A stretch of DNA of 32,000 nt. Origin: Candidatus Saccharimonadota bacterium. Its GTDB lineage: Bacteria; Bacillota_I; Bacilli_A; Mycoplasmatales; Hepatoplasmataceae. Below the pieces are notes generated by a model. It was not told the origin of the DNA. It saw nothing but the letters and a program-made list of their open reading frames with translations, and ran no database searches. This document shows positions 5,553 to 24,126 of this stretch, one piece after another. Position 1 is the first letter of the stretch; each line of letters opens with the position of its first letter. Position numbers and translations under genes: made by a program. Location: positions 60,001-92,000 of the forward strand of contig AP027131.1 of the NCBI GenBank assembly GCA_027925225.1, read 5' to 3'.

Positions 5553-6653
5553 TTATATTTTTATCTCTTCATAATAATTTTTTAGTCAACTTGTAAATTT
5601 AATTTCATTAAATTTAATTTCATTAATAACTAAAAAAAGAATAAATTTAAATTTCTCATTTTCTGTGAGCATATCAATATTTCCATAAAATTCAAATGTT
5701 TTCAAATTAATGTTTCTAAGCAAATAAGGAAGAGTTATTTCCATAAAATCCTTTTCTATTTTTTTGAAGTCATTTTTTTCAATTAAATTATAAATTTCAT
5801 CAATTTTGATTTTAAAATCTCTTATATGATTTATATTAATTTTTCAAAAATTATTGTTTGACAATAAATAATAATTAATTAAAAAATCTTTATTTATAAA
5901 GAATTTTTTAATTTTTCTTTCTGAATTTGAAAGATAAAAAAATTCATTAACATTAATATTTAAATATTTTGTAAGGGCGGGATTTCTTAATGTAATAATT
6001 ATTAAATTATTTTTTGCAAGATTGTTTATTAATTCAGAAAGTTTTTTTATTTCTACTGGATCAAGATATGTTTCTGGACAATCAAAAATAAAAATTTTAT
6101 TTTTTGATTCTAATTCAATAATTAAATTTATATATATATTTAATTTTTCTGATTTAGATAATCATTTTTCTTCTATTTCTTCATTTTGTTTATCAAAAAT
6201 AGCAATTTTAAATAATAACTCAAGAATTTCAGAATCATTTTTAAAATTAAGTTTAGGATTTAAATGATAATTATTATTTTCAAATTTAATATATTTGTTC
6301 ATTGTTTCAAGAATTAAATTTAATATTTCGTTATTTTTTAAAATATTTGTTAAATCAATATTTTTTTCTTCTAATGTTTCCAAAATATGTTTAAAGATAA
6401 TTTTTCTTAAAATAGAGGTTTTTTTAAGTTCCAATTCTTTTTTTAAATCTCATTCTTCTGCAATATAAATTATTTCTCTTTTTTCATCATATTCTCGTTC
6501 TGAAAATACCTCTCTTTTTTTATTTTGTATTAATGAAATAAAATCATTTACAAAAGTTGTCTTCCCAGAATTATTTTCCCCATAAATAGCCATTATGTTA
6601 TTTTCGGTTTTAATTTTTAAATTATTATATTTATCATTTAAATAAATTTCCAT
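5553..6653 (-). CDS. ABC/SMC-type P-loop ATPase in the csn2 position (Csn2-like, motifs intact), 366 aa
   Basis: Hand-translated codon by codon from 6653 to 5553; only TGA interrupts the frame. Walker A is GENNSGKTT, the ABC-signature-like motif is LSKSEK, and Walker B is KIFIFDCPETYLDP, followed by NLIIITLRNP (His-loop position). It lies 83 nt downstream of cas2 on the same strand. Confidence 0.65.
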
Positions 6654-6736
6654 TATAAATTTATAATTCCTTTATTTAAAAAAATTATAAATGTAAAAAA
6701 CAGATTAAATCTTAATTATTGTTTTAAAATTATTTT

Positions 6737-7076
6737 TTAAATAATGATTAATGGTTCATCAGTTTGATAGTATTCTTTATTTTTTTTATTTCCCCTTATT
6801 ATTTCAATTTCCTCATATTGTTTATTTGTTATTACTAATAATCTAATATCTCCTTCAGGAGGCAAAATGTTATTAATTTTTTCTTTTGTTCTTTTTACTC
6901 AATCGTGATTATAACAATGTTTTAAATATACAGATTCTTGAATCATTATAAAACCAAGTTTTATTAATTCATTTCTAAATTTGTTCATATCAGATTGATT
7001 TTTTTTGCTTGTTGTTGGTAAGTCGTAAAATAAAAGTATTTTCATTTGTCTAAACTGAGTCTTTAATTTATCCATT
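6737..7076 (-). CDS. cas2: CRISPR-associated Cas2, apparently disrupted by a 1-nt frameshift after codon 8 of the MKILLFYD start
   Basis: ATG at 7046 (or 7076) gives MKILLFYD and then runs into TAG. The next frame reads LPTTSKKNQSDMNKFRNELIKLGFIMIQESVYLKHCYNHDWVKRTKEKINNILPPEGDIRLLVITNKQYEEIEIIRG...PLIII, ending at TAA 6737-6739. Joined, the two pieces match the type II Cas2 pattern (xxILLxFDxPT...FRKxLxxxGFxMxQxSVY). The start and stop frames differ by one nucleotide. Confidence 0.75.
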
Positions 7077-7096
7077 TTTTATTATTTTATCATTTA

Positions 7097-8200
7097 TTAA
7101 TTTATTTTCTTTTTATTAATTTTTCTTGAAATTAATGCTAATACTAAAAATAATAATATATAAAAATATGTTAATATGAAATATATATTATAAGCTGCAT
7201 AAGACATTTTAACATTGGGCTCTTCTAAAGTTCTTATATAAGATGTTGAATCTCAATGAAATAAATGAGGAATAAATAATTCATTTATTGTTGTTGTATC
7301 TGTATTTAAGACAACATTTCCAATATCGTATGTGTTACCCGGAAGAAGGGTGGTGTTATTAAAAGAGGTAATAAGAATTGATTGCAATGCAAAAAATGGA
7401 TAAAATATTGCTACAAATAAATACGGCACATCATAATTAGAAGCATTAAGACTCATACTTACATTTAAAGTATCACTGTTAATATCATAATAAATAAAGT
7501 TTTCAATTTCTCTGATATGTATTAAAGAGGTTGGATCATTTTCTACTGGATATGTTAGAATATTTGGCTTACAAAATTGTATTTTTATAAGTACAAGATC
7601 CATTATTAAATATATAAGAACAATTACAAACATTGTTATGAAAAAGTTTTTTACTGTTTTTGTAATATTTTCAACAAAAAAGCAAACTAACATAATAATT
7701 ATAGAAATTAATAACACACTATAATATAATCAAAAAAAATTAATTTCACTAAATTCAAAAGAATATACTAAAAAACCACCAGATTCATATTTAAAATCAT
7801 GAATCTGATTATCGACAACTGCACCTATTATTAATATTATGTAAATAAATAAGGTTAAAATAATTACATTTAAAATAATAGATGAATAATTTTTAAGTTG
7901 ATATTTTTTTTCTTCTCTTATCCTGGAATAAATATTTGATTTTTTTAAGTTATAAATAAATAATCCATAATTAAATGTAAAAAATAAAATAATACTTATT
8001 ACTGAAATAACAGAATACATTTCATAAAAATTTATTGTACTTATAGCAATAAAAATTATCATAAAAACAAAAAAATAAAATAGTAACTGTTTTCAGGAAC
8101 ACATTTTTTTAAAATAAAGCACAAAAAAAGCATAAAAGCTTAAATTTTTGTTTTCTTTTTTATTATTTATATTATTTTTAGTAAGATTCATACTTTGCAT
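7097..8200 (-). CDS. Multi-pass membrane protein, paralog B of the 3-copy family, located between cas1 and cas2
   Basis: ATG at 8200 (MQSMNLTKNNINNKKENKNLSFYAFF...). Track ORFs 7730-8062 and 7253-7717 are in frame. The TGA at 7253-7255 reads through to TAA at 7097-7099. 367 aa with the shared motifs FYPFFALQSILITS and PHLFHW. Confidence 0.75.
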
Positions 8201-8284
8201 TTAAGCAAGTTTAAATATTAAGAGTTTTGTTCGAGGTTTAAAATAAACTAATTATTTTTAAATTATATTTTATAAATCATTTTT

Positions 8285-9208
8285 TTAAAAATCTTCATTT
8301 TTATTGAAAGATATTTTTGGCAACATTAATTCTTTTTCATTATTTTTAAAGTATGAAATAATAGATTTTATAGTTATATCTATTGCATGTCTTACTTTTG
8401 TTATCTGATTATTTATTATTACATTTTGATCCAAAACAGAAACTAATTTAGCTCTCATTATTAAACTTATTGTTTCATCTTTTTCATTCAATAAAATTTC
8501 ATTATTTTCTACTATAATAAAATCTAATAGTGGTCTATAAGGTTCTATTAAGTCATAAGTAAGATTAAAATAATTATTTGCTGTTTTATGAAAAAAACCA
8601 AGAGAAGGATGAAGACCTGCTTTTACAATAGCACTTGAAATTTTACTTGCTAAAACTTTATATCCATAATTCATTGATTTGTTTATTGCATTATCTTGAA
8701 ATCTTATAAAACCCGAACCAAAAAGAGATATAAAATATAATCTAGCAGCCGATGATTCTCTATTTCTTTTATCTCCTTGAATTACATCATTATGATAGTT
8801 ATCCATTTTTTCTATGTTTATTTTTGAGGAGCCTAAATATTGCATTAATATTTTTTGGTTTTCTATTTTTTGTTTGATTATTTGTTGTTGAAATTTATCT
8901 TTTTCTCTTTGATTTAATTCTAATTGTAAATTAAAGTTTTGTAAAGGTTTGTGGTGACCATGAAGTGCTAATAGCAATCCTACTGGGTCATGAGATAAAT
9001 TATTTATCATAAGAGGAATATTTCTATTTGTAAGTTCAATTAGAGTTTGTATTGTTATATTTGTTTTGTAGTTATCAATAATAATAATCCCAATATCATC
9101 TAAATAAATTGGAATATTTTCTTCATTTTCCATTCCTCTTATAATTAGACTATTATTTTTTATTTTAATATTTTGATCAGTTTGTATAAAAACTGTTCTT
9201 CAATTCAT
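8285..9208 (-). CDS. cas1: CRISPR-associated integrase Cas1, type II (307 aa)
   Basis: The true start is ATG at 9208, giving MNWRTVFIQTDQNIKIKNNSLIIRG... (type II Cas1 N-terminus; the W is a TGA codon). It continues into track ORF 8285-9133, with NRESSAARLYF, GYKVLASKISSAIVKAGLHPSLGFFH and LTYDLIEPYRPLLD. Confidence 0.92.
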
Positions 9209-9327
9209 ATTTTAAAATTCCTTTTACAATTTATGAATTACATTTTTAATTTTTATCAAAATAATTATATAAAATAAGATATTATGTTTTTGATAATAAG
9301 TGATATATTCAATGAGAGGTGTTTTAA

Positions 9328-9639
9328 ATGAAAAAATTAATTATAGATGATGTAACTTTTAAAATTAAAAATGAAGAAGAAAAAGAAGATCTTATTAGAA
9401 TAATTAAAGAAATAAAAAGCAAATTAAAAGAATCTAATAATCTTCCTTCAAAAATATCTTTATTTAGAGATATTGATAAAGATAAAGATGTTTTTAAATT
9501 TTATATGGTATTTGATTCTGATGAAGATTTTGACAAATGAGATGCAAAAGTGACTCAAGAAGTAAAAGATCTTTTTATAAAAGGTTTACATAAATATTAT
9601 GTAAAATATAATTATTCAGAAAAAATTGATATTGATTAA
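9328..9639 (+). CDS. Small charged protein, family P copy 1 (103 aa, unknown function)
   Basis: SD-like GAGAGG precedes the ATG at 9328. The TGA at 9538-9540 reads as Trp (..DEDFDKWDAKV..). TAA at 9637-9639. Paralogous to 9677, 10032, 11755 and 12123. Confidence 0.7.
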
Positions 9640-9676
9640 TTTAAAAAAAATAATAAATTAAATAACAGGTGTTTAA

Positions 9677-9994
9677 ATGAAAAAAATAGTTATAGAAGAT
9701 ATGACTTTTAAAATTGAAAATAAAGAAGAAGAAAAAAATTTTATTGAAGGAATTCAAAAAATGAAAAAAATTTTAAAGGAATCATATGATATTCCTGCGA
9801 AATTTTCTTTATTTAAAAATGTTTATAAAAATAAAAATATTTTTAAACTTCATTTAGTATTCGAATCTGAAGAAGTTTATAGTGAATTTATTGCAAAAAT
9901 TTCTCAAGAAGATAGAGAAAAATTTAATGATTATTTGGGTAAATATGAAATAAAATATAGCCGTTTAGAAAAAAATGATATTAATAATTTTTAA
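9677..9994 (+). CDS. Small charged protein, family P copy 2 (105 aa)
   Basis: Intact ORF, MKKIVIEDMTFKIENKEEEKNF... It shares the family N-terminal and central motifs (PAKFSLFKN...IFKLHLVFESEE). Its C-terminus is the most divergent of the family. Confidence 0.7.
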   Translation: MKKIVIEDMTFKIENKEEEKNFIEGIQKMKKILKESYDIPAKFSLFKNVYKNKNIFKLHLVFESEEVYSEFIAKISQEDREKFNDYLGKYEIKYSRLEKNDINNF

Positions 9995-10031
9995 TAAAAA
10001 ATAGCAATATATTAAATGCAAAGGAGTTTAA

Positions 10032-10343
10032 ATGAAAAAATTAATCATAGAAGACATAACTTTTAAAATTGAAAATAAAGAAGAAGAAAAAAATTTTATT
10101 GATTGAATTAAAAAAATGAAAAAAGATTTAAAAGAATCAAATAATCTCCCTACAAAATTTTCTTTGTTTAGAGATATTGATAAAGATAAAGATATTTTTA
10201 AACTTTATTTAGTATTTGATTCTGATGAAGATTTTGACAAATGAGATGCAAAAGTACCTCAAAAAAATAAAGATGATTTTAGAAATGAGTTAGGTAAATA
10301 TTTTGTAAAATATAATTACTCAGAAAAAATTGATATTGATTAA
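10032..10343 (+). CDS. Small charged protein, family P copy 3 (103 aa)
   Basis: AAGGAG SD, then ATG at 10032. Two in-frame TGA codons (Trp). It ends ...KYNYSEKIDID with TAA at 10341-10343. Missed by the standard-code ORF track. Confidence 0.7.
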
Positions 10344-10356
10344 TATTTATAAAAAA

Positions 10357-10385
10357 AATACTGTTAAAACAGTATTTTTTATTTT
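10357..10385 (+). terminator. Rho-independent terminator after the P1-P3 cluster (shared with convergent membrane paralog C)
   Basis: AATACTG-TTAAAA-CAGTATT hairpin followed by a T-run, with an A-run upstream, so it could act in both directions. Confidence 0.55.
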
Positions 10386-11473
10386 ATGTTATTTTTATTA
10401 ATTTTTCTTGAAATTAATGCCAATACTAAAAATAGCAATATATAAAAATATGTTAATATAAAATATATGTTATAAGCTAAATAAGACATTTTAATATTAG
10501 ATTCATTGAAATCTGGGTTGTAAAGATTTAAATTTCAATGAAATAAATGAGGAAAAAATAATTCATTTATTACTGTATTATTGTTTAGCATAGTATTTCC
10601 AATATAATATGTTTTATCTGGAATTAGGCTAGTGTTATTAAGAGAAGTTATAAGAATTGATTGCAATGCAAAAAAAGGATAAAATATTGTACATATTAAA
10701 TATGGCACTTCTTCTTTTTGCGTATTAAGAGCAATACTTACATTTAAAGCATTATTTGAAGCATCATAATATAAATAATTATCAATTTCTTTAAAAGTCA
10801 CTTTATTTGTTTCACTATCTACTGCATCAACTATTATGCTTGGTCTACAAAATGAAATTTTTATAAATACAAGATCCATTATTAAATATATAAAAACAAT
10901 AGCAAACATTATTATGAAAAAATTTTTTACTGTTTTTGTAATATTTTCAACAAAAAAGCAAACTAACATAATAATTATTGAAATTAATAAAACACTATAA
11001 TATAATCAAAAAAAGTTAATTTCACTAAAAACAAAGGAAAATGTTAAATAATTACTAGTTTCTGGTTTAAAATCATTGATTGTATTATCAATAACAGCTC
11101 CTAAAATTATTATTAAATAAATAAATATTGTTAAAATGATTACATTTAAAATTATCGAAGAATAATTTTTAAGATGATATTTTTCTTCTCCTCTTATTTT
11201 AGAATAGATATTTGATTTTTTTAAATTGTAGATAAACAAACCATAATTAAATGTAAAAAACAAAATTATGCTTATTACAATAACTATTGAATACATTTCA
11301 TAAAAATTCAATGTGCTTATAGAAATATAAATTATTAAAAAAACAAAAAAATAAAATAACATTTGTTTTCAAGAACACATTTTTTTAAAATAAAGTGTAA
11401 AAAAACAAAAAAAGCTTAAATTTTTATTTTCTTTTTTATTATTTATATTATTTTTAATTTTTATATTATTCAT
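10379..11473 (-). CDS. Multi-pass membrane protein, paralog C of the 3-copy family
   Basis: ATG at 11473 (MNNIKIKNNINNKKENKNLSFFCFF...). Track ORFs 11006-11362 and 10535-10969 are in frame. The TGA at 10535-10537 reads through to TAA at 10379-10381. 364 aa. Confidence 0.75.
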
Positions 11474-11689
11474 ATTTTGTGTTTAATTATTAAATTTTTT
11501 TCTAATTTTAAATATAATGTTATTTTTTTACTGATTATATTTTATAAGTTTGTTTTTTAAATAAAGATTTTTTATTTTAATAATCTAATTAATTTTATAA
11601 TATTATTTTTAAATTTATAAAATCCTTTTCTAGAAATTAAAAGTTTTTTAAAAAAACATAAAAAACCTAAATGTGAATTTAAAAGTGAT

Positions 11690-11743
11690 ATATAAAAATA
11701 CATTTTAAAATATAATTATGTAGAAAAAATTGATATTGATTAA
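11690..11743 (+). pseudogene. 3' fragment of a sixth family-P gene
   Basis: Reads ...KYILKYNYVEKIDID-TAA (stop at 11741-11743), matching the conserved family C-terminus (KYNYSEKIDID). No upstream coding part remains. Confidence 0.5.
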
Positions 11744-11754
11744 TAGGAGGAAAA

Positions 11755-12063
11755 ATGCAAAAATTTTATAATTTTGAAATTACATTTAAAGTTAATAAAA
11801 TAGATCAAACAGATTTTTTAAAAAATTTAAAAACAATTAAAAATGAATTAACTAATAAAAATGTTTTGCCAATTTATATAACATTATTTAAAAATATTGA
11901 TAAAAATAAAGATTTTTTTACAATATATTTAGGTTTTATGAGTGATAAAGGTTTTGATGAATGAAAGAAAAATGTTCCTCAAGAGTTAAAAAATATATAC
12001 AATAATAATTTAAAAAAATATGTTATTAAAACAGACCACAAAGAACAACAAAGCATTGACTAA
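11755..12063 (+). CDS. Small charged protein, family P copy 4 (102 aa, most divergent N-terminus)
   Basis: AGGAGG SD, then ATG at 11755. One in-frame TGA (..GFDEWKKNVPQE..). TAA at 12061-12063. Confidence 0.65.
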
Positions 12064-12122
12064 TTAAATAAAATATAAAATATTAAATTTATTTATGAAA
12101 TATATTTTTTATGGAGTTTAAA

Positions 12123-12434
12123 ATGAAAAAATTAATTATAGATGATGTAACTTACAAAATTGAAAAAGAAGAAGATCAAAAAGCTTTTATTGAAAAAATG
12201 AAAGAAGTAAAAAGTAAATTAAAAAAAATTAACTTACTTCCTACTAAATTTTCTTTATATAGAGATATCGATAAAGATAAAGATACTTTTAAGCTTTATA
12301 TGGTATTTGATTCTGATGAAGATTTTGATAAATGAGATGAAAAATTTCCTCAAGAAATTAGAGATATCTTTATAAATTATTTTCGTAAATATCTTATAAA
12401 ATATAATTATTCAGAAGAAATTGATATTGATTAA
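12123..12434 (+). CDS. Small charged protein, family P copy 5 (103 aa)
   Basis: GGAG SD, then ATG at 12123 (MKKLIIDDVTYKIEKEED...). The track start at 12111 is less likely. The TGA at 12333-12335 reads as Trp. TAA at 12432-12434. Confidence 0.7.
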
Positions 12435-12454
12435 TTAATTATTTAATTATAAAA

Positions 12455-12478
12455 AATACTGCTAAAGCAGTATTTTTT
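12455..12478 (+). terminator. Rho-independent terminator after P4-P5
   Basis: AATACTGC-TAAA-GCAGTATT followed by a T-run. It is a near copy of the terminator at 10357-10385. Confidence 0.55.
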
Positions 12479-12520
12479 ATATAAAAATCAATTAGCTAAA
12501 ACCAATCAATTAACCAAAAC
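12479..12520 (-). repeat. Orphan CRISPR-repeat remnants (two tandem partial repeats, no spacer)
   Basis: TATAAAAATCAATTAGCTAAAAC followed by CAATCAATTAACCAAAAC. The second contains 16 nt (ATCAATTAACCAAAAC) identical to the 3' part of the plus-strand array repeat. Orientation is the same as the array. Confidence 0.6.
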
Positions 12521-12603
12521 ATATTTTAAGTATATTTAATAGGTTTATATAATTTTTCATTTTTTTTGTTTAAGTTTATATTTATTTTAGGGAGATAAAT
12601 ATT

Positions 12604-12747
12604 ATGGAAAAAGAAAACCATAAACATCAATTTAAATGCGAACACTGTGGACATGAATATAAAAGCAAATATGAAGAAAAAGAGTGCCCTGAGTGCGGAG
12701 CAATGAATCAATGCAAAATAAAAGATGAAGAAAATAAAGAGATTTAA
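12604..12747 (+). CDS. 47-aa zinc-ribbon mini-protein (CxxC...CxxC)
   Basis: GGGAG SD lies 8 nt upstream of the ATG at 12604. Sequence MEKENHKHQFKCEHCGHEYKSKYEEKECPECGAMNQCKIKDEENKEI, with TAA at 12745-12747 and a hairpin terminator following. Confidence 0.5.
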   Translation: MEKENHKHQFKCEHCGHEYKSKYEEKECPECGAMNQCKIKDEENKEI

Positions 12748-12765
12748 ATATCTCTTTATTTTTTA
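12736..12765 (+). terminator. Hairpin terminator between the zinc-ribbon gene and the convergent aldolase
   Basis: AAAGAGAT-TTAAAT-ATCTCTTT followed by ATTTTTT. Confidence 0.45.
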
Positions 12766-12771
12766 TAAAAA

Positions 12772-13629
12772 TTATTTTAATCAATTTTTATTATCGGCAC
12801 CAACTGCTTTTATTTTTTCTTTTGCAATTTCTTTTGCTTTATTTATCCCAACTTGAAAGATTTTTCTTAAATCAAATGCTTCAGGATTTTTATCCATATA
12901 TTCTAAAATTCCAGAGATAATAGCTTTTTTAAGTTCGCTATCAAAATTAGCTTTTCTAATTCCTGCACTTACAGCTTTGCTGATTTGCTCTAATGGAATT
13001 CCAGTTCCGCCATGCAGTACTAGAGGAACTTTTCCTTTGCTAGAAATTTCTTTTATTAAATCAAAATTAATTTTTGGTTCTTTGCAATAAAAACCATGAC
13101 TAGTTCCACAAGCAATTGCTAACATATCAATATTAGTATTATCAATAAATTTTATTGCATCTTCTACTTTTGTAAAATGATCATTATCTTCTTCTATATC
13201 ATCTTCTTTTCCGCCAATTATTCCAATTTCCGCTTCTAATGTTATATTTTCATTTTTAATAAGATTTCTAACTTTGTTTGTAATTTCAATATTTTCTTTA
13301 AATGACAATGTAGACCCATCAATCATTAATGATGTATAACCAAGCTCAAGTGATTTCTGATGATATTTAATATCGCGTCCATGATCTAAATGAACAGCAA
13401 CAGGAATTTTTGCTTTCTTTGCACAAGCAATAATAATTGCCGCTAACTCTTCGTGTCCAGCATAATTTATTCCTCCCTCGGTTGTTTGTAAAATAATTGG
13501 AGCATTTAATTCTTCTGCAGCAAGAATTGCAGCTTTTGCTCCTTCTAAATTTACGACTCCAAAAGCAGGAACTGCATATTTATTTTTTATTGCATCTTTT
13601 AATAAAATTTTTCCACCTACAAGGGGCAT
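12772..13629 (-). CDS. fba: Class II ketose-bisphosphate aldolase (fructose- or tagatose-1,6-bisphosphate aldolase family), 285 aa
   Basis: MPLVGGKILLKDAIKNKYAVPAFGVVNLE..., PVAVHLDHG and PLVLHGGTGIP. The track stop at 12781-12783 is TGA, so the protein runs 2 more codons past that Trp codon to TAA at 12772-12774. Substrate specificity cannot be decided from sequence alone. Confidence 0.85.
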
Positions 13630-13824
13630 AATTTCACCTCTTTAAAATACTATTTTTAACTTTAATATACTCCTTTTTTAAAGAAATTAGTTTTAATTAA
13701 TTTTAAAGTTTTATCATTAATTTGTAAAAAGAAATAAAAATATAATAAAAGGAGGATTGGTCATTTATTTTTTAATAACTAAAAACTTTATTTTACTTGG
13801 CGGTTTAAAAAAAGGAGGTTATTA

Positions 13825-14898
13825 ATGACGAAAGAGCTATTATTTTTTTCTTCTGGAAATACAAAAACAGAAGTTAAGAAAATTGACGATAAAAAAAAGA
13901 TTCCCAAAAATGAGCGTGATTCTTTTATTGATTTTAGTAGATTTTTTCATCCATCTAAATGATCATCTGAAGATTTTACATTGTATTCAATGATTGTTTT
14001 CATTATAATTCTACTTTTAATTTCTATAGTTAATATAGTCCTTTTTGGTTTGGGGTTTGATGCCAGTAATCAATCGGCTTTTGGGAAAACAATTAATGGA
14101 AAAGAAGGAATAGTATTGGAGGATGGTTTTTCAAAAACTAACGGTTTTTATATTGTTTCTTGAATTTTATTATTTTTATCATTAATTGCGTCTGTTTTTC
14201 AATTTATGTCCAATATCTTTTTAATTAAATTTTCAAAAAGATTTATTTGATGAAATCAAATTTCTATGTTTTCATTTTTACTTATAGATATTGTTTATGG
14301 AGCATGATGAATTGCAATTTCACAAATTATTGGACTTGTTCTTGGACAACAACGTTATTTTGCATGAGATAAACAAGATAAAAAAACAGATATTGATCCA
14401 TATAAATCACAACTTAATATTAAATGATTAGTAATTGTGGGGGGGGTTGCAGTTGTTTTTGTTCTTGCTTCTGTTTTACTAATTACACCAACAATATTTA
14501 CAGATAATAAAGAATTTTATACATATGTTGAAGGTACACCATCAGATATACCAAATGATGTAGATGTTATAGAAAGTACTATTCATCAATCTGGTAATTT
14601 TACAACATATGGTTATACTGTAGAGTCTGGACTACTTTATGATGTTGCTCCTTGATGAGATATGGTAGTAGGAATTTTTCAAGTTTCAGGATTAATTCTG
14701 CTTACACGTAAAACATATTGAGCATGAATTTCATTTGAAGTAGCTATGGCAGCACAAATGGTTGTTTACTTTGAAGCAGGAAATTTAATTCTTTCAATTC
14801 AAAGTATTCTATTATTTATTTCTAATTTATTACCACTTTACTACTGATTTACAATGAACAAAAAATCAGCAAGAAAAGCAAAACAAGGTATAGCTTAA
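13825..14898 (+). CDS. Multi-pass membrane protein, tentatively PnuC-like (riboside transporter family), 357 aa
   Basis: AAAGGAGG SD, then ATG at 13825. Track ORFs 13981 and 14437 are in frame, joined by many TGA codons. It is Trp-rich with a two-repeat TM organisation, and the C-terminal LTRKTYWAWISFEV...LLPLYYWF resembles PnuC. Family assignment is from memory only. Confidence 0.45.
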
Positions 14899-14910
14899 AG
14901 GAGGAATAAG

Positions 14911-15345
14911 ATGAAAGTTTATATTATTGCAAAAGATAATTTTAGAGAATATGCAAACAATTTAAATGATTACATTAAAAATATTCTTAAAAAAGATGTT
15001 TTGTTTTTTTTAAAAGAAGACAATTTATCTTATATAAAAGAGATTGTTAATATAAGTGAAAAAATAGTACTAAATAATAATAAAGATAGACTTATAACAA
15101 TTGATGAATCTGGCGGATTAGGATTTTGTGCTGCTGCAAAAGTTAAAAAAATGATTGTGGCACAATGCGCCGATCAACACTCTGCACATATGACAAGAGA
15201 ACACAATAATGCTTTAGGTATAAGTTTAGGGGCTGATATCACAAATATATTTATTGCAAAAGAAATATCAAAATTATTTCTTGAAACAGAATTTGCAGCC
15301 GGAAGACACATGATAAGAATTGACATGTTAAATAAATTGGGATAG
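14911..15345 (+). CDS. lacA: Galactose-6-phosphate isomerase subunit LacA (RpiB/LacA/LacB family)
   Basis: 144 aa. MTREHNNALGISLG and the C-terminal GRHMIRIDMLNKLG match the LacA signature (GRHQIRVDMLNK). Confidence 0.85.
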   Translation: MKVYIIAKDNFREYANNLNDYIKNILKKDVLFFLKEDNLSYIKEIVNISEKIVLNNNKDRLITIDESGGLGFCAAAKVKKMIVAQCADQHSAHMTREHNNALGISLGADITNIFIAKEISKLFLETEFAAGRHMIRIDMLNKLG

Positions 15346-15354
15346 GAGAGAAAA

Positions 15355-15849
15355 ATGAAGATTGTAATAGGTTGTGACCATATTGTTACTGATGTTAAAG
15401 ATAAATTAAAAGAATCTTTAATTTCAAAAGGTCATGAAGTTTATGATGTTGGTACATATGATTTTGTAAGAACTCATTATCCAATTTTTGGTCAAAAAAT
15501 TGCTGAAAATGTTGCAAGCAAAAAATATGATATTGGTGTTGCAATTTGTGGAACTGGTGTAGGAATATCAAATTCTAGTCAAAAAATAAAGGGTGCAAGA
15601 GTTGCGCTTGTAAGAGATTTATTAAGTGCAGAAATTGCCCGTTCACAATATGATGCAAATATTATTGCTTTTGGCGGAAGAATAACAGGTCTTGGAATTA
15701 TGGAAGAAGCAATTGATGTTTTTATAAATACTAAGTTTAATGGCGAAAAAGAAGTTGTAAACTTTTTAGATAATATTGTTAAAAAAAATAAAACAGTTTC
15801 ATTTAAAAAAGAATTGAAAGACTGAGAAAAAGGAAAATATCATGATTAA
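15355..15849 (+). CDS. lacB: Galactose-6-phosphate isomerase subunit LacB (RpiB family), 164 aa
   Basis: MKIVIGCDHIVTD...THYPIFG...AICGTGVGISN. The TGA at 15823-15825 reads as Trp and restores the typical LacB end, WEKGKYHD. TAA at 15847-15849. Confidence 0.88.
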
Positions 15850-16879
15850 CACAAAAAATAAAGATAACAAAGAACTTTTACTTGCGGTTGATATTGGTGG
15901 AACTTTTATCAAATTAGCTATTATTACACGAGAAGGATTAATGCTTGATCGTTGAAGAATTAAAACTAATACAAATGAAAAAGGAAAATATATTCCTGAA
16001 GAAATAACAAATCAATTTAAAAATAAATTAAATGAAGAAAAATATCAAAATAAAAAGGCAATTGCAATGGGAATCGGAATTCCTGGTTTTCCTGCACTTG
16101 ATGGAACTGTTAAGTTTTCCGGAAATATTGGATGAAAAAATTATGATGTAAAAAAAGATCTTAAGAAATGATGAAATGATTTACCAATAGCTGTACATAA
16201 TGATTGTGATATGGCTGCACTTGGAGAAAAGTTTGTTGGTAATTTTAAAAAAGTTGATAATTTTGTTTTTATAACATTGGGAACAGGAATGGGTGCTGGA
16301 ATTTTAATTAATGGAAAATTATATCAAGGTTCAGGGGGAACGGCCGGTGAAATTGGCCATATTCCAATTCAAGGTTTTAAAACAAGATTTCAATGTACTT
16401 GTGGATTACCTGAATGTGCTGAACCTACTTTTTCAGCAACCGGATTAATCAATATATATAATGAATTTAGAAGTAAAAATTCTAATATTAAAAGTATTCT
16501 TGATGATAAAGAAATAAATGGGAAAAATATTTGAGATGCAGTTAGAGAAAATGATAAATTAGCAATAATGGCTGCAAAAGAATTTGGAGAATATGGAGGA
16601 AGATTATTAGCCACTGTTGCAATGTCTTATAATCCAGAAGTAATTATTCTGGGCGGCGGGCTTGCTCATGATAATGAAACAATACTTGAATATGTTATTC
16701 CTGTTTATAAAAAATTTACACATGATTTTATAAGAGAAACAACAAGAGTTGAATTATGTAGTGTTGGAAATGATGCTGGACTCTATGGAGCATCATATTC
16801 AGCAATGATTTTATATGATCAAAATATGCTTAATTTTGTAAACCATTATTATGCTACAAAAAATGAATCTGTTTTATAA
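15842..16879 (+). CDS. ROK-family sugar kinase (glucokinase-like), 345 aa
   Basis: The ATG at 15842 overlaps the lacB end. LLLAVDIGGTFIKLA, GGTAGEIGHIP and the ROK zinc motif CTCGLPECAEP. Track ORFs 16211 and 16568 are in frame, joined by TGA. Confidence 0.85.
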
Positions 16880-16910
16880 ATTCATTTTTATGAGTTAATT
16901 AACATTAAAA

Positions 16911-16939
16911 AAACTTCTTTACTAAAAAGAAGTTTTTTT
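16911..16939 (+). terminator. Rho-independent terminator after the ROK kinase gene
   Basis: AAACTTCTT-TACTAAA-AAGAAGTTT followed by T7. Confidence 0.6.
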
Positions 16940-16944
16940 AATTT

Positions 16945-17040
16945 TATTTCATTTAATTATAAATATCAATTAACTAAAACACATTATTCACAAAGTGTTA
17001 TTTATAAATATCAATTAACTAAAACACATTATAAATATAC
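16945..17040 (-). repeat. Degenerate CRISPR repeats detached from the main array
   Basis: 16945-16980 (TATTTCATTTAATTATAAATATCAATTAACTAAAAC) matches about 29 of 36 repeat positions. 17003-17025 (TATAAATATCAATTAACTAAAAC) is a 23-nt partial repeat. The core TATAAATAT recurs at 17030-17038. Confidence 0.7.
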
Positions 17041-17313
17041 CATTTTCTTTTTTTTTTAAAAAGTATTTTTACATTATTCAATTTATTTTTATATAATTTT
17101 TTTATAAATTAAACATAATTAAATTTTTAAATATACAAATAAAAAATTTAGAAAGGTATTTAAGTGGATAAGGAAACAACAATTTTAATAATTTCATTTA
17201 TTTTATGTTTGTTAGAAAATAATATAAATTTTATTATACATATTGAAAAAAAGGAAAATTTTTCTTTACACAGAAATTTATTAATAATTTTATTTTTTTT
17301 TATTTTTATACAT

Positions 17314-20300
17314 TTTTTTTTATTACTATAAATATCAATTAATCAAAACCTCCTATAAATATTTCTCATACTATATTGTGTATTCATCTGCTTATAAATA
17401 TCAATTAACCAAAACATAAACAAAAATGCCACCACTCTTAATATAGTATTCATCTGCTTATAAATATCAATTAACCAAAACTTAAGATATACTATTTTTG
17501 GAACAACTAAAGTATTCATCTGCTTATAAATATCAATTAACCAAAACATTTCATTGACCTAGAAGAAGCACGCTTAAGTATTCATCTGCTTATAAATATC
17601 AATTAACCAAAATGATGAGTTTGTTGTTAATACATTAGTATTTGTATTCATCTGCTTATAAATATCAATTAACCAAAACCAAATGGGGCATACCATCCAA
17701 TTATGCTGGGTATTCATCTGCTTATAAATATCAATTAACCAAAACGTCCAGACAGTAGATTACAGAGACCTGAATGTATTCATCTGCTTATAAATATCAA
17801 TTAACCAAAACAGTTTATCATATGTGTTTATTTCGTAGAAAGTATTCATCTGCTTATAAATATCAATTAACCAAAACTATAAAAAATATCATAAATAGTA
17901 TAATATTGTATTCATCTGCTTATAAATATCAATTAACCAAAACACACTCATTTATTTTTATTTTTAATTCTTTGTATTCATCTGCTTATAAATATCAATT
18001 AACCAAAACCCCCCCCTTTTCTGCCTTTTGTGGAACGTATTCATCTGCTTATAAATATCAATTAACCAAAACATCTTCTTCAGATAATCTGATATTAAAG
18101 CCGTATTCATCTGCTTATAAATATCAATTAACCAAAACAAATACTTAAATTGGCTCATATTATTCAAAGTATTCATCTGCTTATAAATATCAATTAACCA
18201 AAACACCAAAAAACATCAGCAGAGAGCGCATATTGTATTCATCTGCTTATAAATATCAATTAACCAAAACAAGAAGATTTATTTAAAAATGTACAAAAAG
18301 GTATTCATCTGCTTATAAATATCAATTAACCAAAACGTGTTTAGGGTCTATATTAAAAGAAAAAATGTATTCATCTGCTTATAAATATCAATTAACCAAA
18401 ACGTGGATTATTTGAAGAATTATATTATGAAAGTATTCATCTGCTTATAAATATCAATTAACCAAAACCCCCTATGGTCTGCCTTATGTGGAACTAGGGT
18501 ATTCATCTGCTTATAAATATCAATTAACCAAAACGTTTAACTAGCAGTAGGGGGGTCTTTTATGGTATTCATCTGCTTATAAATATCAATTAACCAAAAC
18601 TAGGTGGATAAACTAATAGGGTGGATTGAAGTATTCATCTGCTTATAAATATCAATTAACCAAAACTTAACAAGAGATTTATACATTTCTTTAATTGTAT
18701 TCATCTGCTTATAAATATCAATTAACCAAAACGAGAAAACTATACTGATTTTTATATTTCTAGTATTCATCTGCTTATAAATATCAATTAACCAAAACTA
18801 TGTAGGGTTATTGCTTAAATAATAACTAGTATTCATCTGCTTATAAATATCAATTAACCAAAACATAATTCTTGCTCTGTCTCTGTAATTTCTCGTATTC
18901 ATCTGCTTATAAATATCAATTAACCAAAACGTTATCTCTTAGAAATGTTTACCCAATTTAGTATTCATCTGCTTATAAATATCAATTAACCAAAACAATT
19001 TTGAAGATGCTCCTAATTATTTAGATGTATTCATCTGCTTATAAATATCAATTAACCAAAACTATGTGGGATTATTGCTTAAATAATAACTAGTATTCAT
19101 CTGCTTATAAATATCAATTAACCAAAACGAATTCCACCAAGCATTAAATCAAATACACGTATTCATCTGCTTATAAATATCAATTAACCAAAACCTAAGG
19201 TGTCTGCCACTCACCTATTTATTTGTATTCATCTGCTTATAAATATCAATTAACCAAAACACTCTTAAATTAATATCACTTAAATCATTAGTATTCATCT
19301 GCTTATAAATATCAATTAACCAAAACACTCATATTAATCATTTACTTGTGGACAGAGTATTCATCTGCTTATAAATATCAATTAACCAAAACGATCAATG
19401 GGAACTGGAAAAGATTTACTTAGTATTCATCTGCTTATAAATATCAATTAACCAAAACAACTCTTTCATGTTTATGATAAATCAACCTGTATTCATCTGC
19501 TTATAAATATCAATTAACCAAAACACCATCAGGAAACCCAACAACAGGATCAGTGTATTCATCTGCTTATAAATATCAATTAACCAAAACTAATGCTAGC
19601 ATCATAAGAAGAAGAATATTGTATTCATCTGCTTATAAATATCAATTAACCAAAACGTTCTCAATACTTTAATTCTTAAATTTATAGTATTCATCTGCTT
19701 ATAAATATCAATTAACCAAAACTAATACCAGCATCATAAGAAGAAGAATATTGTATTCATCTGCTTATAAATATCAATTAACCAAAACGGTTGGTGGTCA
19801 CTATATGTAGTATCCAATGTATTCATCTGCTTATAAATATCAATTAACCAAAACTATTTTTTATTCAACAATATAAACATATTAGTATTCATCTGCTTAT
19901 AAATATCAATTAACCAAAACGAAAGAATTAATAAATTTAAGAGCATAAAAGTATTCATCTGCTTATAAATATCAATTAACCAAAACTTAGTTTAACCACC
20001 TATCAAGTAGTAGTTCGTATTCATCTGCTTATAAATATCAATTAACCAAAACGTAAGGGATTTGTTGAGCATGGTTTTGTTAGTATTCATCTGCTTATAA
20101 ATATCAATTAACCAAAACTCTATCTTAGATAAATCAAGTTCTTTTAAAGTATTCATCTGCTTATAAATATCAATTAACCAAAACGGGTCATTCTAAAAGA
20201 AAAAAATAAATGAAGTATTCATCTGCTTATAAATATCAATTAACCAAAACTTGCCTCTTTTATCTTTTATACCACTATGAGTATTCATCTGCTTATAAAT

Positions 20301-20316
20301 ATCAATTAACCAAAAC
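17314..20316 (-). CRISPR. CRISPR array: 45 full 36-nt repeats plus 1 degenerate terminal repeat, and 45 spacers (44 of 30 nt, 1 of 27 nt)
   Basis: The plus-strand repeat is GTATTCATCTGCTTATAAATATCAATTAACCAAAAC, and the minus-strand sense is GTTTTGGTTAATTGATATTTATAAGCAGATGAATAC. Repeat starts at 17380, 17446 ... 20281 were checked one by one. The period is 66 nt except 17974 to 18037 (63 nt). The degenerate repeat at 17314-17349 marks the trailer end. Transcription direction is inferred from the GTTTT start, the cas9 strand and the tracrRNA polarity. Confidence 0.97.
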
Positions 20317-20324
20317 ACCTTAAA

Positions 20325-20330
20325 ATTATA
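20325..20330 (-). promoter_or_regulatory. Candidate -10 box (TATAAT) in the 32-nt leader between the cas9 stop and the first repeat
   Basis: The minus strand reads AATGAGACTTTTTTTTATTATAATTTTAAGGT and then the repeat. The TATAAT lies about 8 nt before the first repeat. No convincing -35 element. Confidence 0.3.
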
Positions 20331-20348
20331 ATAAAAAAAAGTCTCATT

Positions 20349-23300
20349 TTATGAGATTTTTCCAAGTAAGTTTATATTTAAAATATTTATTTTTTTAATT
20401 ATATTTTTAGAATATTGTGGTCAATAATTAAAATTTTTATTAAATTTAATTGCATTTCCATAATATAAATTAGGATGTGAAATTAATAAAACCCTTGCAT
20501 TACTAGCAACTCCATTATATTTATAAATTTCAAATTCATTATTAATTTTAAAAATTACATTTCTATTAATTAATGTTTTAATTTTTCCTTCATTAACTTG
20601 ATGTTTAAATATTGCTTCTAATTTAAAATTTTCATTAAATCTAAAACCATAATATGATCTTATATCTCAAATATTATTTTTATTATCTTTTATAAAACCT
20701 TTTTTTAATTTTCCTTCTTCAAAAGAATCTTTATGATTAACTGGATTTTCACTTCCTAAGAAGTTTCCTCTTACTTTTTTGTTTATTTTATAAGAAACAA
20801 TTGGATAATCTCTTTCAGATTTATTATTTAATTTTGCCCAATCTTTTATATCAATTATTTTTTCAAATTTTGGTTCTAAAAAAGTTTTCTTTTTTATTTC
20901 TTTTTCCTCTTCGATTAATTTTATTGGAATTAAATTATTTACTATTTTAGGAAAATTTTTTATTAATGGTTTTATGCTTTTTGAAGCAAAATTATTTTTA
21001 TAAATACTAACTCTTATTAATTTATCAAGATTTGAAGCATAATTTATTAATGAATTTGAACTTATTGTAATTACATTTTCAAAAAAATCATTTTTATATT
21101 CTTTATTAAAGTTATTTTTTCTAAGCTGTTCAATAATTACTTTTTTCTGTTTTTCTAAGTTTTCATATATTTCATTTTTTGTTAATATATTGTTTTTTTT
21201 ATATTCATCAATTAATCAATTGTAATAATCAAAAATTCTAATAATTGATTGATAAAATTCAATATGTTGTTTTGAAATCATATTTATTAAAATCATTGCA
21301 TCAACCGCGTGATGGAATGGACTTATATCTCTTGGTTTACTTTCATGTCCTCAAAGACTTCCATCATATTCAAATGGTTTAAGTCAAAGCTTTCTAAATT
21401 TAGATGTTATTCCACCTTGAACAGTTAATATTTCTGGTTTTTTTTCTTTTGTTATTTTTGAAAATCTGTCAAACTCCAAATCAAAATATCCTTGAATGTA
21501 TTTTGTTATATAACGAGTATCATTGATATTTCTTGATTCAAAACCAGATTCAATTGATCTATTTATATTTTCTTTTAATAAATATTCTAGTTTAGTTGTA
21601 TTTTTATTTTTATAGAATTTAATTATTTCTTTTTTTCAATTTTCAATTTTTTTCTTTTCTATTCCGTTTTTTTCAAAGTAATCAAGAGGTGTTAAATTTT
21701 TTTTTAAATTATTATCTTTTTTTGTAGTAATAATTTTATTATTATTTGTATTGTCATTATATTGTGAATAGGGAATAATATGATCAACATCATAATTTAT
21801 TCTATTAACAAAAAAATCTTTTAAAAGAATTTTTTCTTTAAGATTAATATCATAAATATTTATTGCATAATCTTCTTTTATTGCATCTTTTGTAATTTGT
21901 TGTTGCTTAAAGAGAAAATAATTACTTATATTTGTTGGGCTTGGATTTATTCCATTTTTTATTAATATTTCTTCAGCTTTTTTTCTTCCTTCTTCGTTTT
22001 TATCTTGTCTTGCTTTAACATCTTTTCTAACTTTCTCTTCCGCATAAAGATCTTTTGCAACTTCAATTATTATTTTGTCAAATTTATTAAATTTTTCAAA
22101 TAATTTTCTTACAACTTTTCTTGTTTGATTTATTGACCTAAAAACAACAGCATTTTTTACCATGTCTGGATCATTTATTCTTTTTAAAAATTCATCTTTT
22201 GTTAATTTAAATTTTTTTATTTTTTCTTCATTATTTTTTTTATTTAATTCACTTTCATATTTCTGTCTTAAAATACCATTATTAATTTGTTTTGAAAGAG
22301 AATCTAAAATAAATTTTGAAGAAGTGTTTAATGTTTTGTGTCCTTTTGTTATTCATTTTTCATTTTTCCTTAATCAATCGTACCCATCATTTTTATCTTT
22401 AAAAAAATCATCTATTTTTATTAATGCATTTTTTAATTTTTCTGGAGTTTTTATTTCTGAAAGAGTTTTGCCAATTTTATTAATTTTATTTGTAGTTATT
22501 GTTGATAAATTTTCTAAATTAATTTTTTTAATATGCTCTTTTAAAAATAAATTATTATCTTTTATTGAATTAAATTTAACTAAAAATAATTGTGCGTTTT
22601 CAAAACTAATTCCATCCATTTTTGGAATTTCAAGATTATTTTCTTTTAATAAATCTGTTACAAAATTTCTTTTAAATTCAATTTTGTCAAAATAATTTAA
22701 AATTATTTTTTTTGTTAAATTTTTAATTAATTCTTCTGTTAAATTATTTTCTTTATTACTTTTTTCATTTTCTAAAATTTTTGAAAATAATTTAGAAGTT
22801 TCACTTGTTATAAAAGAGAGATCACCTTCTATTGAAAAATTAGAAATTCTTTTTTCATTTGGATAGAATTGGCAATTTCCTATCATAGCTGTAAAAGGTT
22901 CATAAAAAAAACTTTTTGAATCTTTTTTCATTTTATTTTTTCAATTTTCAAGAATTTCTTTATCTTTTGGACCTGGCCCATCTTCAAAAAAACGTTGTCT
23001 AAAAATTGTATTTTTTATTTTTGTTTTTAGATTATCAAATATAGGATTAAATTCTATTTGTTTTTCTATTAGTGCTATATATTCTCTTTCATAATCTTCT
23101 CTTTTAAACAATAATTGGTGTTCTTCATAAAATTTTATTTTTTCTTTTTCTAATTCAGTTTTTTCTTTTTTTCCAAGAATATCCTTATTTATTTTTTTAC
23201 TACGATACATAAATTTTTCAGGTTGATCAAAAGAAAAGTGTTTATCTTCTATAATAGCTTTTATTGGATAATTATATTTTTCAATTAATCCTTTAGCTCT

Positions 23301-23798
23301 TTCTAAAGAATTTCTATCATCCTTGTCTTGAGTAGAATTTGGAATAATAAAAGCATTATTATATCCCCTTCTTTTAGCAATGTGCACTAAAGCAATAAGT
23401 AATTGAAGATTTGTTAATTTCTCATTTAATCCTTTATAACGGAGTAATAGTGGATTAATATTTTTATTATTAGAATACTCACCTTTTTCTTTAGTTTTTT
23501 TAATGTGTTCTTCATATTCTTCTTTTGTTATTAAATTATTGCTGTAAAATATTTTTTTTAAATCTTCTATTCTTTGCTTTCTTCTATCTGTTAATCTTCT
23601 TTGAGATCTAAAACCTCTTCTTTTATAAGCATTTGTCTCAAGGGTTTTTGAATCTTCTGGTGCATCTCAAATTCTTACTCCAAAATCATCAATTTCAAGA
23701 TTTGGTTCATTATTTTCTTCATCATAAGAATATGTTCCTACTGCTCACCCTAAAGATGTAACCCCTATATCAAGTCCTAAAATTTTTTCTTTTTTCAT
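20349..23798 (-). CDS. cas9: Cas9 endonuclease, 1149 aa, catalytic motifs intact
   Basis: The ATG at 23798 gives MKKEKILGLDIGVTSLGWAVG (RuvC-I, Asp10). Also IIIEVAKD (RuvC-II), NYDVDHIIPYSQ (HNH, His codon at 21780-21782) and PFHHAVDAM (RuvC-III, 21300-21320). Track fragments 22941-23387, 22374-22931 and 21636-22163 and the C-terminal region are all in one frame, separated by TGA. TAA at 20349-20351. Confidence 0.95.
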
Positions 23799-23905
23799 TT
23801 TACTTTTAAACACTCCAATAAAATATATTTATCTCTAATTTTTATTTAAATTATAAACCTTAAAATATTTGCTCTTTTTATTTTTAGTTATTTTCTCAAA
23901 AAAAG

Positions 23906-23934
23906 TTGTCTTTTTTAAATTTACTTATTATAAT
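23906..23934 (+). promoter_or_regulatory. Sigma-70-type promoter for the tracrRNA (TTGTCT, 17 nt, TATAAT)
   Basis: TTGTCT at 23906-23911 and TATAAT at 23929-23934 with exactly 17-nt spacing. The predicted start near 23941 is 8 nt upstream of the first anti-repeat. Confidence 0.5.
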
Positions 23935-23940
23935 GAAATT

Positions 23941-24125
23941 GAACTATCTAGTTTATTTGTTTATAAATGTCAATTAACCAAAACAAAAATTCATCTGTTT
24001 ATAAATATCAATTAGCCAAGATAGTGATTTACTTGAGATTTGATTATAAATTTCAAGGGACATCTTAGGGTACCCAGGTAACCCTGTAATCCCCCTGGTT
24101 GAGCATCTTTTGATGCTCTTTTTAT
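23941..24125 (+). ncRNA. tracrRNA (primary transcript about 185 nt) with two tandem anti-repeats, stem-loops and an intrinsic terminator
   Basis: Anti-repeat A (23949-23984) and anti-repeat B (23987-24022) both align without gaps to the plus-strand repeat, so both are complementary to the crRNA repeat. A 9-bp stem follows at 24033-24056 (TTGAGATTT/AAATTTCAA), then GC-rich stems at 24067-24098 and the terminator GAGCATC-TTTT-GATGCTC plus T-run at 24101-24125. It is divergent from cas9, as in many type II loci. Confidence 0.8.
24101..24125 (+). terminator. Intrinsic terminator of the tracrRNA
   Basis: A perfect 7-bp stem GAGCATC/GATGCTC with loop TTTT, followed by TTTTTATTTT. Confidence 0.75.
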
Positions 24126-24126
24126 T

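Follow-up and report, generated by a model that had tools for sequence, protein, structure and literature searches.

Can a type II-A CRISPR-Cas system remain in working order when its adaptation genes lie kilobases away from its effector gene and array? The question is raised by a 32,000-nucleotide (nt) stretch of DNA (hereafter the window; positions 60,001 to 92,000 of contig AP027131.1) from Candidatus Hepatoplasma vulgare (Hepatoplasmataceae), a mollicute that inhabits the digestive gland of a pill bug, Armadillidium vulgare, and has a closed genome (Kawato et al. 2024, PMC10928387); the Cas9 of the window is 100% identical to H. vulgare protein P0001. The window carries an intact type II-A system as two minus-strand blocks, one of cas9 and the array (with the gene for the trans-activating CRISPR RNA, tracrRNA, divergent on the plus strand) and one of cas1, cas2 and a long-form csn2. 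Along the locus, tracrRNA, cas9, leader and array come first; some 8 kb of unrelated genes follow, and then cas1, a membrane-protein gene, cas2 and csn2, with the cas9 stop codon 11.1 kb and the end of the array 8.1 kb from the cas1 start. The layout is real and, judging from its sequence, the system is probably still functional. We favor, with a probability of roughly 0.7, the reading that this is a complete type II-A system of separately transcribed modules that would cooperate in trans, with an inherited order, a gap that grew stepwise and no loss of function.

The elements listed in the initial annotation of the window are all present at or close to where it placed them, provided that genetic code 4 (TGA = Trp) is used: cas9 and several other genes are then single long open reading frames (ORFs), which translation table 11 breaks into fragments. 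Its description of the layout as non-canonical and not explained by a simple inversion also holds, as all cas genes share the minus strand. GC content across the window is 15-31%. The loci compared with it were those of H. scabrum, H. crinochetorum, Tyloplasma litorale, L001, L006, L027, L028, L029, L031 and L032. A Cas1 alignment succeeded in finding relatives in a scan of the genome collection; a scan with Cas9 alone, for which the peptides selected were low-complexity and K/N-rich, returned nothing.

The cas9 gene (20349-23798, minus strand) encodes 1149 amino acids (aa) from the ATG at 23798, with an alternative GTG at 23813, and is continuous only in code 4. Its product matches TIGR01865 over residues 11-1140 (E = 1e-111) and the Pfam HNH_4, RuvC_III and bridge helix families, each over the gathering threshold, and the catalytic motifs (RuvC-I aspartate, HNH DVDH, RuvC-III HHAVDA) are visible. 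The array (17314-20316, minus strand) follows cas9 directly, its leader end adjoining the gene, and has the uniform repeats reported for it at the outset: 45 copies of the 36-nt repeat GTTTTGGTTAATTGATATTTATAAGCAGATGAATAC (17380-20316), 44 of them identical and one with a single mismatch. A single degenerate repeat (17314-17349) marks the trailer, the end far from cas9. All 45 spacers are unique, 44 of 30 nt and one of 27 nt, with a mean GC of 28% compared with about 20% locally, and a search for self-matches of the 45 spacers found no meaningful one. Two near-duplicate pairs (sp9/sp11 and sp19/sp23, each 93% identical) show the pattern expected from repeated sampling of variant invaders.

The minimal leader (20317-20356, minus strand) consists of a terminator-like hairpin (20342-20356) holding the cas9 stop codon in its loop, a T-run and a TATAAT box (20325-20330) lying 8 nt upstream of the first repeat, which begins 32 nt past the cas9 stop codon. 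In all relatives a T-run, TATAAT and then 1-11 nt abut the first repeat, whether the upstream element is cas9, csn2 or an unrelated gene, which suggests that a very short leader of about 30 bp, made up of the T-run, TATAAT and a few further bases, would suffice for transcription and integration in the Hepatoplasma branch. The prediction can be tested, and it would be of use in the design of engineered arrays of minimal size. As a separate observation, each repeat contains TTGATA, which together with the terminal TAC of the repeat and the first bases of some spacers forms sigma-70-like -35/-10 pairs on the minus strand. Repeat-internal promoters are known in type II-C arrays; the pairs seen here are probably a chance effect of AT-rich DNA.

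The tracrRNA gene (23906-24128, plus strand) comprises a promoter-like TTGTCT-17-TATAAT (23906-23934), a first anti-repeat (23949-23984), a second (23987-24022) that pairs with 34 nt of the repeat, a conserved nexus-like hairpin GGGTACCCAGGTAACCC (24068-24084) and an intrinsic terminator (24101-24118) followed by a T-run, all on the plus strand. Folding of a repeat:anti-repeat chimera gives -63 kcal/mol (z = -10), the hairpin GGGTACCCAGGTAACCC is kept in four relatives with one compensatory change, and the same build recurs in five relatives (L001, L032, H. scabrum, Tyloplasma and L006). Rfam gave no match for the tracrRNA region, a result treated as uninformative because its tracrRNA model is built on Streptococcus-type sequences. 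Scans of metagenomes of the Joint Genome Institute with the nexus motif and with the repeat likewise gave no match.

Two tandem anti-repeats under a single promoter are present in every Hepatoplasmataceae tracrRNA gene (L001 3444-3524; L032 approximately 350-420; L007 12468-12540; L005 14755-14840; L006 approximately 12440-12560), with CAAGAT, nexus and terminator only after the second. Either one is predicted to be capable of pairing with an entire repeat. In the outgroups L028 and L031 the gene contains a single anti-repeat only. No description of tandem anti-repeats in type II tracrRNAs was found in the searchable literature.

Turning to the adaptation block, cas1 (8285-9208, minus strand; 307 aa) is of the type II subtype (TIGR03639, E = 3e-71), and E151, H207 and E222 are invariant in four aligned Cas1 proteins of the family. 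It has its own TATAAT box about 50 nt upstream, and such a box precedes every cas1 of the family. The cas2 gene (6737-7075, minus strand; 112 aa) matches TIGR01573 (E = 4e-20) and PADLOC Cas2_II (E = 2e-37). The sequence of cas1, then cas2, then an ATPase gene had been proposed from the start, and this order stands; the adjacency of cas1 and cas2 does not, as a membrane-protein paralog that had been overlooked (7097-8200, minus strand; 367 aa), with a promoter-like TATAAAATATAAT box of its own, sits precisely in the space bounded by the cas1 stop and cas2 start. These two cas genes are neighbors in nearly all CRISPR systems, and in L001 they are 27 nt apart. The intervening gene lacks the terminator hairpin present in its closest paralog (10379-11473; 80.6% nt identity), so cas2-csn2 can still be transcribed.

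The supposed ATPase, already suspected to be csn2-like, is a long form of Csn2 (5553-6653, minus strand; 366 aa): residues 1-346 match positions 1-332 of the 338 in the PADLOC Csn2 profile (E = 9e-34). It is 36-43% identical to the gene right after cas2 in H. scabrum, L028 and L029, the last two having contiguous cas genes, and an HHpred search by Kawato et al. 2024 led to the same assignment (PMC10928387). A PDB sequence search with it returned only weak matches to ATPases of the ATP-binding cassette (ABC) and structural maintenance of chromosomes (SMC) classes; solved Csn2 structures were not matched. We rejected the idea of an ABC transporter made of this protein and the membrane proteins of about 365 aa: the match of the ATPase to Csn2 is full-length, that to ABC_tran is weak, and the membrane family is absent from those loci of relatives that have the csn2 ortholog. 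Csn2 is usually described as an inactivated ATPase. In the H. vulgare protein, Walker A (GENNSGKT) is kept together with a Walker B-like motif (IFIFDCPETYLD), so the Hepatoplasma form may yet be able to bind ATP or hydrolyze it. Across the comparison, Walker A (G-x4-GKT) is intact in Csn2 of Hepatoplasma, L028, L029 and L031 and the Walker B-like motif in H. vulgare, L028 and L029; both motifs are lost in Csn2 of Tyloplasma (L005 11258-12307) and of the metagenome-assembled genome (MAG) from Rimicaris shrimp (L006 11269-12324).

Profile and sequence tests thus find every type II-A component: Cas9, type II Cas1 and Cas2, Csn2, and a tracrRNA with anti-repeat. The contiguous order cas9-cas1-cas2-csn2-leader-array is not found in H. 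vulgare; that order is typical for type II-A, yet it lies outside the formal definition of the subtype. Canonical systems such as those of S. pyogenes SF370 and S. thermophilus CRISPR3 share with this locus the four Cas proteins, 36-nt repeats, 30-nt spacers, a divergent tracrRNA upstream of cas9 and a degenerate trailer repeat. Unlike them, H. vulgare has an array that follows cas9 rather than csn2, a leader of about 30 nt, adaptation genes 8-11 kb away, a gene between cas1 and cas2, a long Csn2 with Walker A and B motifs, and two tandem anti-repeats.

The initial annotation presented the layout as a peculiarity and said that a conserved, already described order in relatives would speak against this; such an order is essentially what the synteny comparison found, and it had been described for Ca. 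H. crinochetorum (PMC3942034). The locus matches that description of a Hepatoplasmataceae-type split system, with several kilobases of metabolic genes between cas9 and cas1-cas2 and the array on the cas9 side. The closest relative, L001 (Cas9 74% and Cas1 78% identical to H. vulgare), is one short-read contig from a separate sample, on which tracrRNA and cas9 are followed by an array of two repeats, the five-gene cassette also seen in H. vulgare, one gene of the P family described below, cas1 and cas2. In the complete genomes of H. scabrum (47% and 54%) and H. crinochetorum, the gap from cas9 to cas1-cas2(-csn2) is 7.6-8.8 kb and holds glpO, glpK, glpF, a phosphotransferase system (PTS) permease and an amylase-family gene, and the arrays are upstream of cas9. 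In Ca. Tyloplasma litorale (38% and 47%) the array begins 34 nt after cas9 and is followed by one unrelated gene and then cas1-cas2-csn2. The tracrRNA gene lies upstream of cas9 in L027 (Cas9 55% identical), where the array is directly after cas9, and in L032 (45%), where the array is likewise after cas9.

More distant loci give the simpler arrangements. The outgroup L031 (Cas9 33% identical) has cas9, a terminator, a leader, a 22-repeat array and cas1-cas2-csn2 with nothing else between; L028 (34%) has the canonical tracrRNA, cas9-cas1-cas2-csn2, leader and array; and in L029 (33%) the array is upstream of contiguous cas9-cas1-cas2-csn2. The Rimicaris shrimp MAG L006 reads cas1-cas2-csn2-tracrRNA, and no cas9 was found within 10 kb upstream of its cas1. 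In H. scabrum and Tyloplasma, as in L006, tracrRNA follows csn2. In a neighbor-joining Cas9 tree, drawn without support values, the cas9-then-array order occurs on both sides of the Hepatoplasma/Tyloplasma clade as well as in L031, and the array-upstream order of H. scabrum and H. crinochetorum is nested inside. The most economical ancestral order for the family would be cas9, leader-array, cas1-cas2-csn2, with tracrRNA after csn2; on this reading, tracrRNA would have been relocated to upstream of cas9 in the H. vulgare lineage.

Two further features of these relatives were observed. The Tyloplasma array has 252 repeats and 251 spacers over 16.6 kb (L004 13413 to L005 7907), about 2.7% of the 616-kb genome, with a few exact duplicate spacers and two internally degenerate repeats. 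Immediately before cas1 in L006 (9960-10000), a TATAAT box is fused to repeat-like TTTTGGTTGGTTGATAATT and resembles a fossil junction of leader and first repeat.

What fills the gap in H. vulgare was acquired in layers. Nearest the array is the repeat relic D1 (16945-17025, minus strand), in which the initial 24 nt of the repeat occur twice, at a separation of 45 nt and in array orientation. It is followed by a carbohydrate cassette of five genes on mixed strands (12772-16879), a "sugar cassette" whose identity Pfam confirms: a class II aldolase (12772-13629, minus strand) and, on the plus strand, a membrane protein (13825-14898), two LacAB/RpiB proteins (14911-15345 and 15355-15849) and a ROK kinase (15839-16879). 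Beyond it lies a second relic, D2 (12479-12520, minus strand), in which two partial repeats are fused as GTTTTGGTTAATTGAT-TG-GTTTTAGCTAATTGATTTTTATAT, with an adjoining hairpin terminator (12452-12480). The "repeat debris" noted earlier is therefore real at both places (16945-17025 and 12467-12520). Both relics keep only the first ~24 nt of the repeat, as does the degenerate trailer repeat of the array, and partial repeats bracket the cassette only in the H. vulgare/L001 lineage, which fits a cassette landing in or beside the old distal end of the array. The cassette is collinear with that of L001 (83% nt identity); being common to both, it predates their divergence.

D1 is also found in L001 at another distance and spacing, and a MAFFT alignment of the region from the window and L001 does not bring the relics into register, so no conservation is claimed for it. 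D2 differs from its L001 counterpart (13184-13260) at 10 positions in 81 nt (about 88% identity) against 35-44% synonymous divergence nearby (P of about 4e-6), and could be a repeat-derived small RNA pairing with tracrRNA, or a constrained terminator or promoter region. An origin of D1 and D2 as fossil tracrRNA genes was rejected: neither a nexus nor a terminator remnant follows them when they are read in the direction of tracrRNA, and their two copies stand in the reverse order of those in the live gene.

Between D2 and cas1 lies a paralog expansion (9328-12434) of five plus-strand "P" genes for proteins of about 103 aa (9328-9639, 9677-9994, 10032-10343, 11755-12063 and 12111-12434) and a minus-strand membrane paralog (10379-11473). 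A third membrane paralog (4378-5490, minus strand; 370 aa) is directly downstream of csn2. The three membrane proteins of about 365 aa are 61-73% and the P proteins 32-73% identical to one another, and neither family matched Pfam, NCBIfam or PADLOC. Apart from one P homolog in L001, they are missing from the loci of L001 and the other relatives, and are therefore recent H. vulgare expansions around the adaptation genes. The interval thus took no fewer than three steps to assemble, beginning with the cassette that H. vulgare and L001 have in common, continuing with the H. vulgare paralogs and ending with the copy between cas1 and cas2. The proposal that roughly 11 kb was inserted between cas9 and cas1 holds in part. 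Much DNA has indeed been added relative to simpler relatives, as the bracketing direct repeat relics and the lineage-specific paralogs indicate. A single insertion is not borne out; array after cas9 is the base architecture, in pure form in L031, and the gap DNA, in which domain searches find no recombinase, accrued in several steps.

The slot between cas9 (or the array) and cas1 varies by lineage, holding glpO-glpK-glpF with PTS and amylase genes in some (L002 13612-21265; L003 13585-22405) and the ROK/LacAB/aldolase genes in the window. Different cassettes in the same slot suggest a recurrent hotspot of metabolic gene gain in these reduced genomes.

In the mechanism that we favor, an interference and expression module would consist of the divergent tracrRNA, cas9 and the leader of about 30 nt that, behind the cas9 terminator, would drive the 45-spacer array. 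The adaptation module of cas1, cas2 and csn2 would be expressed 8-11 kb along the same strand from promoter-like boxes of its own. Cas1-Cas2 integrases act on the leader-repeat junction in trans in type II-A adaptation, and the adaptation products and Cas9 would presumably reach the junction of leader and first repeat by diffusion. The order cas9, array, cas1-cas2-csn2 would come from the family ancestor. The carbohydrate cassette would first have entered in or beside the old distal array end, leaving direct repeat relics on each side; two small gene families would later have expanded, one copy entering between cas1 and cas2 without adding a terminator. These rearrangements would not have disabled the system because the leader is tiny, compact enough to travel with the array, and the proteins act in trans.

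The rival that survives best is decay: the function of csn2, or selection on the locus, would have been lost, leaving scattered cas genes on the way to deletion. Such a reading was published for Ca. H. crinochetorum Av, in which Leclercq et al. 2014 found cas1 and cas2 13 kb from the array, with seven metabolic genes between them and cas9, and proposed a recent inactivation because no csn2 was found (PMC3942034). In H. vulgare the non-canonical layout and the interruption of cas1-cas2 would fit it. However, csn2 is present at full length and all four cas ORFs are intact. Between H. vulgare and L001, both split, synonymous divergence (dS) is 0.47-0.67, and the ratio of nonsynonymous to synonymous divergence (dN/dS) is 0.32 for cas9, 0.23 for cas1 and 0.08 for cas2, compared with 0.15-0.43 for neighboring metabolic genes (simple Nei-Gojobori estimates in a genome of very biased composition, which tells on the other side); values well below 1 have thus been kept over a divergence of about 0.5 that postdates the split.

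Spacer content also speaks against decay. No spacer is common to any two genomes, including the pairs H. vulgare/L001 and H. scabrum/H. crinochetorum (best ungapped identity at most 0.69); it follows that the arrays were rebuilt after the split layouts came into being. In H. crinochetorum, strain Tokyo2021 has 25 spacers in our analysis and strain Av has 35 (PMC3942034). The repeats are identical and their degeneration is polarized to the trailer end, tracrRNA is conserved in five lineages, and the split locus of Tyloplasma carries 251 spacers. Purifying selection, spacer turnover and uniform repeats together lend indirect support to active spacer acquisition and interference, and bear out the early impression, drawn from the repeats, of a recently active system.

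Several observations nevertheless weigh against a working system. A BLAST comparison of the complete array with 50,697 phage records yielded chance-level matches only, with no protospacer, and an exact search of IMG/VR with three high-GC spacer cores found no match. The L001 array has one spacer, which is either real or a short-read assembly artefact, and another H. crinochetorum strain, Ps, is reported to have lost CRISPR-Cas altogether (PMC4536667). The membrane gene between cas1 and cas2 could disturb their stoichiometry. The sigma-70 promoter scan is non-discriminating at 15-20% GC (118 matches against 103 expected), and from the sigma-70 and terminator scan only the tracrRNA promoter and terminator were used. 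On balance, decay appears unlikely.

A more elaborate modular account, which we hold to be quite improbable, shares the separate units with the favored reading and gives the repeats a larger part. Three units (cas9 with the portable leader of about 30 bp and the array; cas1-cas2-csn2; and the tracrRNA with tandem anti-repeats) would have been reshuffled by recombination at repeat and anti-repeat sequences, and the slot behind the array would capture carbohydrate cassettes, with D1 and D2 as footprints. D2 would be a functional small RNA pairing with tracrRNA, resembling the Francisella small CRISPR-Cas-associated RNA (scaRNA) or acting as a sponge, and the second anti-repeat would have its own role in the processing of precursor CRISPR RNA or in regulation. 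More speculatively, the tandem anti-repeats and the conserved D2 could point to unexplored tracrRNA biology.

That a single mobile element of about 11 kb (a transposon, island or prophage remnant) entered between cas9 and cas1 of a canonical locus is very doubtful. The direct partial repeats flanking the sugar cassette, the GC content of the cassette (27-28% against 15-21% in its flanks) and the different cassettes in the same slot of different lineages could all be read this way. Yet domain searches found no recombinase, transposase or phage gene in the interval, the flanking repeats are CRISPR repeat fragments rather than transposon ends, and the high GC is comparable to that of other conserved housekeeping genes in the window. 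Moreover, one insertion cannot place the array between cas9 and cas1, an order that exists free of inserts in L031 and nearly so in Tyloplasma, and it does not account for an interval built in separate steps.

Two separate origins, in which a horizontally acquired adaptation module would have joined an interference-only set of cas9, tracrRNA and array, are highly improbable. The physical separation of the modules, their movement relative to each other and the position of tracrRNA after csn2 in H. scabrum, Tyloplasma and L006 could be taken in this sense; but Cas9 and Cas1 rank the relatives alike (L001 > H. scabrum > Tyloplasma), each genome has one repeat family, the modules co-occur in every family member examined, and Csn2 is orthologous to the gene after cas2 in canonical relatives. 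A mis-join across the 3-kb repeat array or the several paralog copies can be practically dismissed: at 73-81% nt identity the paralogs have diverged too far for an assembler to mix them up, a closed Oxford Nanopore and Illumina assembly is the source of the genome (PMC10928387), the independent L001 contig carries cas9, a short array, the cassette, cas1 and cas2 in one piece, and three other complete genomes (H. scabrum, H. crinochetorum and Tyloplasma) are split as well.

Elsewhere in the window, two small ORFs (28119-28631 and 28638-29171) sit between fusA and tuf, inside the conserved region of the str operon. A SocA/Panacea antitoxin domain (E = 3e-8) is present in the first, and the second is without a family match; they may form a toxin-antitoxin pair.

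With the split published for H. crinochetorum, the headline is already known for a sister species. Like H. vulgare, H. crinochetorum Av has a type II system with cas9 separated from cas1-cas2 by kilobases of carbohydrate or glycerol genes, the array with cas9, identical repeats and intact ORFs. It differs in having the array upstream of cas9, adjacent cas1-cas2 and a glpO-glpK-glpF, PTS and amylase cassette; and tracrRNA follows csn2 on that side, as shown here for its sister species H. scabrum, whereas it is upstream of cas9 in H. vulgare. Its authors, who missed csn2, called the locus inactivated, and a later survey listed the Hepatoplasma locus as of "incomplete structure" (Ipoutcha et al. 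2019, PMC6882279). According to Kawato et al. 2024, Csn2 is present in 4/4 Hepatoplasmataceae genomes and the system is likely intact, with which the present analysis agrees; they tabulate the H. vulgare Cas proteins, the accession numbers of which imply that a single gene separates cas1 from cas2 and that twelve separate cas1 from cas9 (PMC10928387). Word searches of the main text of that paper turned up neither spacers nor tracrRNA nor synteny. To this the present analysis adds a comparison across the family, a proposed ancestral order of cas9-array-cas1, an account of how the gap arose in layers and indirect evidence that function has been retained.

Mycoplasma II-A loci are similar in belonging to mollicutes, using code 4, being type II only and comprising tracrRNA, cas9, cas1, cas2, csn2 and array, but they are mostly contiguous (PMC6882279). 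Annotation pipelines built on table 11 or on the expectation of contiguous operons will miss the H. vulgare system or call it incomplete. Orphan or distant arrays served in trans by cas operons elsewhere are common in type I systems, and here too proteins would act on an array that does not adjoin their genes; unlike those cases, one type II system is split between effector and adaptation genes across a whole bacterial family.

The H. vulgare locus does not challenge the understanding of how type II systems work. It does indicate that a II-A system can stay under selection and turn over its spacers in the long term with its adaptation genes kilobases away. In H. vulgare this selection appears to persist even with an unrelated gene between cas1 and cas2, which corrects the 2014 view of the Hepatoplasma system as a dead locus.

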